Notes: generated by a model not told the origin, from the letters alone. 64,000 nt of DNA from Octopus vulgaris (GCA_951406725.2 OX597818.1:45942001-46006000), one strand, 5' to 3'. Counted from the stretch's first letter, positions 48,969-54,900 are shown. Program-made: numbers and translations.

Positions 48969-51900
48969 CTGGAGAAGAAAAAGGTTAAACAAAATATGAA
49001 TGTATTTAAATGAGCAAGAAAAAAAAAAACATACGAGTAAAAGACTAGTTAAAATATAGTAACTAGATTTCCCCTTTCAAAATTAAAATCATGAAAATGC
49101 TCCTAAGTCCACAGATTTACTTATTCATTTCAAAACATTCATGTAAATTGTGCTTATTACATTGGTGATAACATGACTTTTGTAGCTAAACAAATATAGT
49201 TTGACATTATTTTGAGTAATACCAATCCCCACCCTTTTATTTTATATGGTGACTCTAAACCTGACAAACTTTCAGAGCAGTTTAAAATAAAAAATCTGAA
49301 AAAGCTTTGTACCATAGATTCTAAATCCTACATAACATCAAAATTTTACAAAACCAGCTTAAATTCAAAATTCCACAAAAACGTTTTCATTAGAAAATGG
49401 CAAAAAGTTTTGACAATCAAATACTGTATCTCCCTTGCAAATTCCAAATTCTATGGAAAAAAAAAATGGAAGATCGAAGAAGAATTTTTTTCTGCCATAC
49501 CACAGAAGCATAAAAGAAATAACTTAACATGCTTTATTGTGGCCATGGCACAATTTAATAATATAGAAACAATTACCTTTTCCAAATATTCCTCTTGCAC
49601 TCTCTGCCAATTGCATTAATTTAGGATTGATGACTTGGTTAGCTTCTTTAAGCACAGACATAAGGTCTTGTGCTTGTTTCATATTAGCAGGAGTGAAGAA
49701 AGTGTACGCAGTGCCAGTATTGTTGCTGCGAGCAGTTCGCCCAATACGGTGAACATAGTCTTCTGAGGTGGCCGGGTAGTCAAAGTTTATCACAAATTTT
49801 ATATCATCCACATCTGTAAAATTGTTACAGGGCATTGTTGGGAAAACCCCCATAACAAGAAGAAAGGCAGAATATTAGTAGGAATAAGATTTATTTGCTT
49901 TTAACTGAAATCAGAAGAGCCAGTTATGTCTATTCATGAAATACTATGAAACCAACAAGAATGCACACTCCCACAAGCTTGACAATTTTAACTTTGAACA
50001 AATTTTAGTTAGGGCCAAGAGCTTACCCTGGGTAAGAAAAGTAGTTAACTTACCTTAATTGCTGCCATCTTACCTGCAACCCCAGGGTGTTTACTTCCTG
50101 TCCCCAACTTAAAAATTCACCTGAACGTCCAGGTTAGTAGTAACCAATTGAAAGAGGGAGCATGCATCTGGCTGGTATCGGCAATTTGCTCTCTCTTCTT
50201 GAATGCTTTTGTTTACAGTAAAACCAAGAAAAGGTTTAACACAATAACTGTGTGGTGACTATTAAACTGTCAGTGAAGAGACAGTAACTGCTGGCCGTGT
50301 GTGGTGAAGGCTAGCCTGCTAGAGGCTAGACATTTGTTATTTGCGTCGGTCACATATCCGAGTACATGTTTATGTAAGTCTAACAAGATACCCTTCAGCT
50401 GTCAGCTCAGCATGCAGGAAGCAAAGTCCCATATGCAGTTTTAAGAGTAAGCATTCCCTCTTTGCTGGCAGGTTTCCGACATGACTCCATCAGGACAGTT
50501 GACAAGGGAGAGATAGGAGTAGAGAAGTAGTCCGAGAAACCGAACTTTAACATCCGGTGAGTCACGGGCTGCAATGCTGAGAAGATAATCCTGGAAATTC
50601 ATAGTGAGGAGGTGGCTGCATTATCCAAACAAAAACATGACATTCTGTGTTGCTATGAATCAGGAAACACCACTGACAAGGATTAATGGTAAGTCCTGTG
50701 AGTAAATTCCAAAACATACTATCAATGATTAATATATAACTTTAATTTCTCAGATGACAAACAATCTAGCAATAAATCTTAAATTGGAGGCATGTTACTT
50801 AACACAATACAAGCAAAATTAACATTTGTCAAGTAGGAATAAGTAGCGGCCAACTGCATAAATTATAAAATCACATAGAAAGACATTAGATGAAAGAACC
50901 AATAATAGAACTTAGTTTGCTACAAAATAACTAAAAAAATTTTAAGGTAATCTCATGTAACTTAGAGGATTAATTCACTATGGACAATCTATACCTGCTT
51001 TAACAGGTTTAAACATGAAAACACTTTAATAGCCCTTAAATCAGTATACTATAACTTCTTGAAAATTACAAGTGGACAAAATATTTGTATGTGATAAATG
51101 TAATTTTACATCAACTTAAAAAGCAGTTAAACTCTATGAAAACACAAGAAAGGTTAACAAGGACTCAAACCTTGATTAAACATAACACAAACAATATGTC
51201 AAAAGTTATATTTACACACACACATTCACTTCTAACACATCTCCATTGTTTATTACTCACTGAAAAGCAAACAGCATCAGTTTATACCAATACCCAGCAG
51301 TTTCAATCTTAGGTGTTTCCAGACAGAATAGCAACACTCAATACTATATCTTACCAGATTTGTGTGAGAAAATCCTAGATCCAGGTCAGTGCCAGTAATG
51401 CATACTATTTTATTGCCACTACATTTTTTATTGAACTTGTGAAATGGGGACAAAAAAAAAAGAAAAAGAAAAAAAAAGTGTTTATCAAATAAAAAGGCAT
51501 TAACCCAGAAAATTCTGGTTAAAAAAAAAGAAAGAAAAAAGAAAAAAAGGGGGTGAAGCAAGAAGATGAAGTTGAAAGAAAGGAAAGCCAGTGCCATTTA
51601 ACTGTCCAAGACAGGTCTGCTGCTTGTGCAGGTCAAGTCTTGAAACTGGAACTTGTTCTCCAACATCACCACCTGAATTCCTCACGCCAGGTCGGGGGAA
51701 CTCAGCACTAAGAATCATCAAATTTATTATTTTCTGGATGTCAACAACTGAAGAGGAAAATTTCTGCACCTTCCCCTCAGCTCTTGAGAGTAGTCATGCC
51801 GGTCCAGCCTGCATCAGTAACTTTCTATGTTCCGCTGCCAAAAGAGACTTAGAACTTATTACTGCGACATAAAGCAGAAGAGTTAACAACCAAAGCAGTT

Positions 51901-54900
51901 GTTTATCATTCACTCTCACATGCACACACACGTACTCAAACATTACAAGTTATGTACTGTAACCAATGCAATCATTTCATATTTACTCTTTAAAAATAGA
52001 ATGTTTATGAATTCAAATTTAAAGGTACTTTAAATGAAATTATTCTTAGGTTTAACATTTCTTAATGAGACTCTGGAGAGAGTTTGAAATTAAAGTTATG
52101 AGTTATTATGAATTCATCATTTAAAATTATGTAGTAAATAATAAAATAAAAAGTGAGAAGACCTTTCTTCAGTTTTATACAAACCTAAGCCTCTAGATGC
52201 AACATCAGTAGCAATCATAATTGGTATACGTCCTGTTCTGAATTCTGTAAAAGGAAAAAATAAAATGGATAATCTCCGAATCTGACAGTTGCACTAAATA
52301 GTGCTGCAGAATATCAGCATAAACGAAAGGTTAAGAAAATTGTGAAAATGATGTCAAAGTTAAAATCAAAAGTAGAATTGTTACTCACCACTTAACACCC
52401 AATCTCTCTCTGGTTGTGACTTATCACCATGAATAGCCATAACAGGCCAGCTGAAGGAAAATGATTGAAAAAATAGTTAAACAAATGCATGCAGATGTAA
52501 CGACATTTTAAATATTTCATAGCTTATAGCATGTGCAATATGAACATCACACCTATCTGCACTAAGAACTATTAGGAATGTGGAAAGCTCCCACCACACT
52601 GATGTGTATTTAACACACAAATTTATCAAATTCAGAAACAACCTATACAAAAACGACTAACCACTTTTTAAAAATACCAAGTCGTCAGTCTAATACAAAT
52701 ACACTAACACCTTTTTATTACAGTATTTCTGTTAAAAAACAATTCATTTGGAAAATAATGAACTTGGTAAAAAAAAAAAAATCATGAAACTGATGCTTGG
52801 AAGGACATGAAAACTTTAATGGAAATTAATCAGGAGACTAAAGATTAATCAAGTTTTAAACGTCCAAATCATTATTTCATCAGAAAATGTGATAAAAATT
52901 TCATTTCATCAAACCGGCATGAATGGGGTGATTTATTGGAATTATTTGTTATAAGATATCTATCAACCAACTTGAAATCTTTTTTTTCAGTTTTGGTTCA
53001 TTGAAGTGGTGTAGGTAGAGCTAAATGCTCAGTCTAGAGACAAAACAGCAAAAATAAAATCTGAACTTTGTGCTCCCCATCCCCAAAAAAGCCTAACATT
53101 TGCAAACTAGGAAATACAAAACAAAATCCATATACTATTATTCCCATAACATTTTTTGCTACCCAGAAAACTAATGAAATAAAATACAGCTTCCTAAAAC
53201 ATATCAACCTGTGTATAACAATATAGCAGTATGCATGCATAAATGTAACTTACCCATCACGTTTCATTCTTCTTTGTAACTCATCTGCTCTTCGTTTAGT
53301 CTCAACAAAAACTAATGTTTTGTTTTCTTTTTCATTCATTATCTCTTCTAGAAGCTTTACTAATCTACAATTAATAGAATTAAAAACATTTGAATACATG
53401 CTTACACATATACATAAACATAAAAAAAAAAAAATCAAAACTATTGCAGCTGAAATAATACTCACTTGTGATCTTTCTCAGATTCATTACAAACATCGAT
53501 TATTTGTAAAATATTGTGGTTCGCACTAAGTTGCAGAGCACCTATGTTGATCTGAATGTAGTCCTTAAGGAATTCCTCAGCTAATGATCTCACTTCTTTT
53601 GGCCAAGTAGCACTCCACATAAGCACTTGGCGGTCGGGCTAGAAAAGGAAAATAATAAAAAGTTTGTAAACTAAAACTCAGACACAAAAACTAAGTCAAA
53701 TATTTTCAATAATGACAAAAAATGTTAATTACTTACCCGAACCTGCTCCATAATCTTTCTAATTTGTGGTTCAAAGCCCATATCCAACATTCTATCAGCT
53801 TCATCCATAACTAAATATGTAGTTCTCCTAAGATTTGTTTTACCAGCTTCTAAGAAGTCTATAAGACGCCCTGGTGTAGCAATGCAAATCTCTGCACCTA
53901 ATAACATTAAAAGAACATCACATGAGAAATGTGCTATTTCATATGAAATCTAACAAACGTGAAAAATCAATCATCCTGACATATGTGCACTGACAAAGAC
54001 ATCAAGAGACCGAACAATGCAATAACTCTTCCCTGCCTTATACATTCAGCACTCAAAATGTGACCCCCAAGTAAAAAGGAAAAGCTAATTATTAGGGGAT
54101 TAATCCAATATATATCTGCTAGGTTGACTCATACAATCTGTGAAATACATTTAAAACCATTTACCAGCATGTCATAAGTGACAGAATTAGCAACAGGAAA
54201 AATAATGTTCCAGATAAAAAAAAATTTTTTTTTAAAAACCATCCAACACATGCCAAGTATGAATAAGCAATAAATTTAACTATTTGTCATTAGAAGTAAA
54301 ATACAAACAATTGCTTCTAAGGGAGAATAGCATTGATTAAATCAACTAAAGGCTGGTACTTTGTTGCATCAATGGCAAATTAGGCGACGGCAGAATTTGA
54401 ACTCAACATTAAGAATTGGCTCAGCAAAACATTTTTTTTCCAATGCTGTTCCTGCTAATCAACTACTAAATAATTACTTCTAGCAGAGGCATAAGGCCAG
54501 AAATTTATGGGGTGGGGCTAGTCAATGCCAGTGGGATCCAGCACCCAGATTGAAGCTTACTTCCATGGGATTTAAACTCAGAATGCAGAGAGCCAGATGC
54601 TGCAAAGCTTGTTGTCCGACACTAGATATCCTGCCAATTCACTGTATCAAGTAATGGAAATTGATATTAACCAGGCACGGGCAACCTTTGCCAAGATGCG
54701 AGCAACATTTGACATGGTTCACCTGACTGACTGCACTACTAAAAAATTCAATGTAATTCTCATTAGGTATGCCATTCAGAAAGTCCTGCCTTCTACAGGT
54801 AGCCCATGAATTAATATAAACATTAGCCACTAACAAAATTCCTGTAAAACACTAATATTTAGATGCTGGCTTTAACCCCTTTGGTACCAACCCACCCCCA

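Follow-up and report, generated by a model that had tools for sequence, protein, structure and literature searches.

The 64,000-nt stretch of Octopus vulgaris DNA analysed here (GCA_951406725.2 OX597818.1:45942001-46006000; hereafter the window) contains a DEAD-box helicase gene, DDX5/17, and our analysis concerns intron 11 of this gene, which is partly retained in transcripts and carries elements shared with distant animals. Positions are counted within the window, and all gene features lie on its minus strand. Exons 2-13 were placed from joints in assembled sequencing runs, and loose ends extend to exon 1. The exon-12 peptide matched DDX17 (E 5.7e-32), DBP2 (2.1e-16) and DDX3X (1.2e-13) in the PDB and was 99% identical to a named octopus DDX5; by sequence, the gene belongs to the DDX5/DDX17/Dbp2 group, and other DEAD-box proteins match less well. 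Exon 11 (52185..52244; joints in four of four runs and translation) encodes helicase motif V and ends at a phase-1 boundary. Exon 12 (49576..49813; translation, joints and peptide matches) encodes motif VI at 49751. Between them lies intron 11 of 12 (49814..52184), a GT..AG intron of 2,371 nt supported by genome searches and by unbroken contigs in two runs. A first-pass annotation of the same DNA had described a 2.4-kb intron at this place, the retention of which would give an in-frame TGA about 22 codons into the intron and before motif VI. Both statements were borne out: the spliced joint was present in all four runs, and translation through the exon boundary reads 22 codons and then the TGA as codon 23 (52117..52119), upstream of motif VI.

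Four overlapping genome searches spanning the entire intron 11 returned the self match and one 46-nt match, indicating that the intron is single-copy, and no interspersed repeat was found in it by these searches. This agrees with the earlier statement that the intron has no recognisable transposable element; the accompanying statement that the window is saturated with them was tested on introns 4 and 6 alone, each of which contains a repeat (1,414 and 423 candidates in genome searches). Two less AT-rich blocks, also described previously, were confirmed at 51900-51560 (GC 0.44) and 50700-49950 (GC 0.43), against 0.25-0.33 elsewhere, and no known non-coding RNA was matched in the intron in Rfam at E up to 5. 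As in the conserved DBP2/DDX5 regulatory intron, the octopus intron is long, in phase 1 and directly behind motif V, and 19/20 orthologous full introns were 979-4,479 nt long. One orthologue (L033) has an intron of merely 53 nt at this position, indicating that the long form can be lost; the frequency of such loss is not measured by our orthologue set because the scan pattern required an acceptor there.

Retention was analysed in four assembled runs (X1, X6, X11 and X14) of the 20 listed, whose RNA nature was guessed although spliced joints are present in them, using contig depth (contig means) as a rough measure of expression. The exon 11/12 spliced joint was found in all four runs. In X6 and X11, one unbranched contig of 2,429 nt each ran through intron 11 into both exons, with a depth of 66.2 versus 164.6 for the spliced joint in X6 (intron share 0.29) and 52.6 versus 289.6 in X11 (0.15). 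In X1, the 5' part of the intron had a depth of 227.3 versus 475.4 (0.32). Intron 11 was uncovered in X14, as was its 3' part in X1; these gaps are not evidence, since the records are filtered and the index lists 0.97-0.98 of the words for both runs. The share was 0.01-0.04 for the comparison introns 4 and 12; the latter (48969-49576) was weakly retained, at 1-4%, in three of the four runs. Since intron 12 lies further 3', a 3' bias does not account for the retention of intron 11, and the presence of empty bins in intron 6 speaks against DNA as the source. These results demonstrate that intron 11 is inefficiently spliced and is retained in steady-state RNA in three of four runs with a share of 0.15-0.32, far above that of neighbouring introns.

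A hint in the same direction came from proteins. Among 174 sequences containing motif V, 39 leave the frame at the exon-11 boundary and lack motif VI, ten of them found only in Logan and one of these in a cuttlefish cluster; the query favoured such tails, and many of the sequences are gene predictions. The cuttlefish-cluster protein (P0045, Logan) has 430 amino acids and leaves the frame just after motif V with a 15-residue tail, for which full retention and use of an internal acceptor are indistinguishable from the protein. No relative of the read-through peptide was found.

To compare the intron among animals, a pattern for the acceptor and the start of exon 12 was used, which gave 53 metagenome loci in 31 clusters and 21 lineages. 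L033 and L045 (8 nt) were dropped before clustering, loci shorter than 300 nt before the stem search, and the near-duplicates L009, L035 and L044 were excluded from an alignment. BLAST revealed short words common to orthologous introns, two of them complementary. Because circularity was to be avoided, the search for shared stems was run without the window. A 13-bp stem, termed P1, ranked top of 137 stems in 26 sequences, with five lineages per seed and 6/19 lineages in all, whereas the other stems printed were found in one lineage each. In the controls, 40 shuffles gave one lineage (30 times) or two (10 times), and the upstream control gave two. The octopus intron also has P1, with predicted pairing between a 5' arm containing TGCATG (50156..50168) and a 3' arm (49960..49972), as supported by the stem search, the pairing and fold prediction. 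Its loop is 187 nt in octopus and 93-327 nt across loci. Of the aligned P1 cells, 94.4% pair, compared with 28-65% when the arms were slid against each other, and among the 13 pairs in 11 sequences, seven are invariant, four vary on one side and two on both. The P1 fold in the window had a z score of -4.64, its ends having been chosen after the fact. The P1 pairing is thus well predicted and not proven by covariation.

Few loci could be assigned from the exon-12 tree, which had 76 columns. The sole firm assignment was L020, a fish, which matched a named Perca DDX5 at 71/74 positions and also matched mir-3064; the label 'arthropod-like' used below is weak. Since one P1-carrying lineage is fish DDX5, the stem spans protostomes and deuterostomes. 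Intron sequence that is recognisable between octopus and fish is unusual.

Donor-like sites are concentrated inside P1. A cluster with GT at 50120, 50073, 50053 and 50026 occupies 50021..50123, as supported by sequence, fold and enrichment of GGTAAG in orthologues. Intron 11 contains three sites with at least 8/9 matches to the donor consensus, all within P1, compared with one in the other 11 introns (11.2 kb). In orthologues, GGTAAG occurred nine times in the 5.3 kb at -350..-150 versus 1.2 expected, and six times in the other 35.5 kb. The GT at 50073 is predicted to be open in a loop, and those at 50053 and 50026 to be mostly paired. Within P1, a predicted inner stem, P2 (50025..50088; arms 50088-50081 and 50032-50025; pairing probability 0.94-1.0), also occurs in three other lineages (L008, L021/L005 and L026). 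Its 3' arm is predicted to bury an acceptor-like site (AG ending at 50028) that overlaps a donor-like site and is followed by an in-frame Gly-stop in the window and in L008, L021 and L005, i.e., two of the three other P2 lineages. A further donor-like site, CTG|GTAAGA at 51349-51357, lies after a long U-rich tract (~51446-51551) with an AG at 51515; the two could form a small cassette, for which no junction was seen in the four runs.

Near the 5' end of the intron, a putative cryptic acceptor (51835..51886), recognised by sequence comparison, consists of a branch/pyrimidine 15-mer (51886-51872), identical in the fish-like loci L022 and L023, and AGs ending at 51862 and 51835, for the use of which no joint was seen in the four runs. 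Downstream lies the motif GCAGG-n-GCATGAC followed by a purine run (51769..51812), which was spotted by eye with the window included and is shared by 4/14 other full-intron clusters, the chance of its 7-mer being <0.05 per sequence. The TGA of this motif would fall in frame on use of either cryptic AG, as in L026. Nine arthropod-like loci (L007, L012, L014, L018, L029, L031, L039, L043 and L053) have a different internal acceptor, a pyrimidine tract followed by CAG|AGGCAC, and in six of the nine a complementary 9-mer downstream would bury the AG in a stem; L031 has this acceptor as well as P1. Altogether, 12 of the 14 other full-intron clusters carry one of the two types of internal acceptor module (4 + 8) and none carries both. 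Judged from sequence, the P1 arms, the donor-like motifs and the internal acceptor module are conserved. A locally stable fold is predicted in the first GC-richer block (51640..51830; z -2.95); no comparable signal was found in L021, L022, L023 or L026.

At the true 3' end, a candidate branch point (49880-49874), judged by the branch-point consensus, and a displaced pyrimidine tract (together 49859..49880, from sequence) precede a predicted hairpin of only 11 pairs, P3 (49822..49858), which lies between the tract and the true AG and is marginal in the window. In P1 lineages the pyrimidine tract is displaced and a hairpin precedes the true AG, and the acceptor hairpins of these lineages were more stable than those of others (7 vs 15, p 0.0006). 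P3 occupies the position where fish loci carry the mir-3064 hairpin. L020 matched Rfam mir-3064 (RF03840) at the acceptor with 58.8 bits (E 2.5e-11). This match and those of L022 and L023 stayed below the gathering score of 76, and the octopus window gave none to this family at E up to 5. Aligning the acceptor hairpins by sequence gave no useful information; the homology of P3 to mir-3064 is positional only.

The donor of intron 11 proved less exceptional than had been proposed. TAG|GTTTGT, taken in the first-pass annotation as the weakest donor in the gene, matches 6/9 consensus positions, and its U1 duplex energy (-7.8) is the sixth strongest of 12; the intron-2 donor TTA|GTATGT is weaker (5/9; -2.9), and only the +3/+4 bases of the intron-11 donor are unusual. 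Among the 20 orthologous introns with both ends, 13 start with GTRAG and one shares GTTTGT, and a weak donor was therefore rejected as a conserved core of the device. Molluscan-type read-through tails starting with GL were seen in 6/174 proteins, a hint of a recurrent +3 pyrimidine donor in some lineages. The conserved core consists of the long-range stem, cryptic splice sites near both intron ends and the hairpin before the acceptor.

We propose that intron 11 is a retained intron with predicted stems and shared motifs through which the helicase senses its own activity and limits its production by negative feedback, and we assign this reading a probability of about 0.55. The cryptic acceptor at the 5' side and, at the 3' side, the donor cluster enclosed by P1 would act as decoys; by their order, they outline a large cryptic exon lying within the intron. 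These decoys may draw U2AF and U1 into dead-end pairings with the real intron ends and thereby stall excision. High helicase activity would open P1 and P2, exposing more decoys, and would open P3, moving the AG away from the branch point and pyrimidine tract. More intron-keeping transcripts, held in the nucleus or lost to nonsense-mediated decay (NMD), would then leave less active helicase to be made. Decoys are favoured because full retention was seen and cryptic joints were not. Sensing by the helicase is suggested by precedents, for which passages of the cited papers were used: in yeast, a helicase-dead mutation lifts retention (as cited in PMC4695336), in human, partially spliced p68/p72 RNA is cleared at low p68 (PMC1920232), and in plants, the DEAD hairpin requires helicase activity (preprint 10.64898/2026.01.23.701338). 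Of the feedback switch suggested by the first-pass annotation, the retention and the elements conserved across phyla were borne out, and the weak donor and alternative junctions were not.

Several observations weigh against this reading. Covariation in P1 was not significant in 11 sequences, since 42-455 of 500 shuffles of the 3' letters did as well as the real arms; 13/19 lineages gave no P1, many loci being partial; and its arms could be kept as protein sites. Single-motif discovery without pairing gave top counts equal to those of shuffles. Three of the lineages with P1 (L021/L005, L027 and the L031 group) have no GGTAAG in its loop. P3 has a pairing probability of ~0.07 in a 620-nt context, where it is beaten by a rival fold, and its stability does not exceed that of the acceptor region of intron 10 (z -2.2 vs -2.1). 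No GT..AG joint or alternative junction was listed inside intron 11 in the four runs. Helicase dependence in molluscs would follow by analogy, and in the passages used, human autoregulation needed ATP binding and not helicase activity (PMC3763533), and in plants, reporter output was reduced even by mutants lacking helicase activity (10.64898/2026.01.23.701338).

The main rival is poison splicing of the plant DEAD type, in which splicing does take place at the internal donors and at the cryptic acceptors (51862/51835 or the AG within P2), the stop-containing isoforms are destroyed by NMD and retention is a by-product. The Gly-stop after the P2 acceptor in the window, L008, L021 and L005, and the in-frame TGA reached from both 5' acceptors, as in L026, are consistent with it, as are the acceptor buried in a stem in arthropod-like loci and the fish tails VSP/VSL after motif V (6/174 proteins), which fit use of the L022/L023 acceptor. 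With no cryptic joint in four runs and an unbranched intron in X6 and X11, we regard it as unlikely; the absence of joints is weak evidence because contigs drop rare, NMD-depleted forms. No internal junction having been seen, the data speak for retention and not for use of a poison exon.

Slightly less likely still is control of retention by other RNA-binding proteins or signals, such as Rbfox at TGCATG/GCATG, which we take to be its motif, or stress, instead of helicase unwinding. TGCATG is present in the P1 5' arm of the window, L008, L021, L026, L027 and L031, and most P1 pairs are invariant. However, fish loci have TGCATA, in which the motif is lost but the pair is kept, and G-U/A-U swaps at two P1 positions preserve pairing. 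The precedent is S. pombe dbp2 intron 2, which in the passages used works via Mmi1 and salt stress (PMC4695336). It appears quite improbable that the folds serve an intron-hosted small RNA like mir-3064, with retention incidental: the L020 match at the acceptor and the reported origin of human miR-3064 from DDX5 intron 11 (PMC4807562) point that way, but the octopus intron has no Rfam match, P3 has only 11 pairs and the P1 loop is 187 nt long. An ordinary, slowly spliced long intron with motifs shared by chance is already disfavoured and the least probable of all. In its favour, the motifs are short, the lineages few and some chosen by eye, but the window-free stem test, the positional GGTAAG excess and retention several-fold above that of other long introns all stand against it.

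Yeast and human are known to use an intron for autoregulation, and plants a structure-gated version; octopus retention and the P1/acceptor architecture shared with fish are new here. The following comparisons again draw on passages of the sources. The introns of S. cerevisiae DBP2, where autoregulation was described by Barta and Iggo 1995 (cited in PMC1920232 and PMC4695336), and of S. pombe dbp2 (intron 2) resemble the octopus intron in being conserved, long and poorly spliced in the same helicase subfamily, and they lower gene output; the likeness is one of description, and S. pombe dbp2 differs in its Mmi1/exosome sites (PMC4695336). Human DDX5/DDX17 intron 11 has the same number and position and a similar retained share (0.11-0.26 for DDX5; PMC4737145), and its acceptor hairpin mir-3064 (PMC4807562) corresponds to the predicted octopus P3; our vertebrate comparison rests on fish-like loci. 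The same retained-intron table lists a second retained DDX5 intron (PMC4737145). Auto- and cross-regulation are reported for the human pair (PMC1920232, PMC3763533), whereas the exon-12 peptide gave one match among 20 candidates scored in the octopus genome, and paralogue cross-control is therefore absent in octopus.

In the land-plant DEAD motif (DRH1/RH46; PMC12218528, 10.64898/2026.01.23.701338), a stem in a long DDX5-like intron masks an internal acceptor, and its opening gives non-coding forms. The octopus intron is similar in that an internal acceptor (AG 50028) is predicted to be buried in P2. The plant motif, located between the start codon and exon 6, consists of one hairpin of 19-20 bp, has a loop of 3-5 nt and covaries significantly, whereas octopus P1 is a long-range stem of 13 bp that encloses further helices and donor-like sites and shows no significant covariation. 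In erythroblasts, introns of RNA-processing genes are likewise retained with cryptic sites, which rarely splice, and the transcripts are nuclear and NMD-resistant; the passages of PMC4737145 describe neither structure gating nor cross-phylum conservation, in contrast to the predicted stems and cross-phylum motifs of octopus. Full-text literature searches gave no report of the P1 stem, octopus retention or the fish-shared architecture, although some of the elements in vertebrates or yeast may have been described before, by Moore et al. 2011 or by Barta and Iggo 1995. Likewise, no animal cis-element for DDX5 intron autoregulation is named in the passages of PMC4737145, PMC1920232, PMC3763533 and PMC4807562.

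A bolder proposal, which is tentative and which we consider rather doubtful, is that a sensor of several parts was present as early as the last ancestor common to octopus and fish. It would have combined decoy donors caged by a stem, a module with an internal acceptor and a hairpin delivering the true acceptor, and by it the helicase would have read its own activity. In that case, mir-3064 would be a by-product of the acceptor hairpin and P1 the missing cis-element of human DDX5 autoregulation. The present analysis narrows an intron of 1-2.4 kb to a few short elements open to mutation. If P1 controls retention in vertebrates, the amount of DDX5, a splicing regulator of interest in cancer research, could be adjusted directly through it.

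Elsewhere in the gene, position 53851 showed a T>C change (plus strand) in the X6 and X11 contigs, at a synonymous third position by our own reading, which may be either a polymorphism or an edited site; inside intron 11, no differences from the genome were listed in the run contigs, which cannot exclude editing. Intron 1 (58044-63937) is 5.9 kb long and contains a weak U6-like Rfam match at 61130-61247, below the gathering score. Two alternative first exons (63986-63938 and ~63470-63441) are joined to exon 2 by loose ends and match annotated isoforms with MSRR and MFSS starts.

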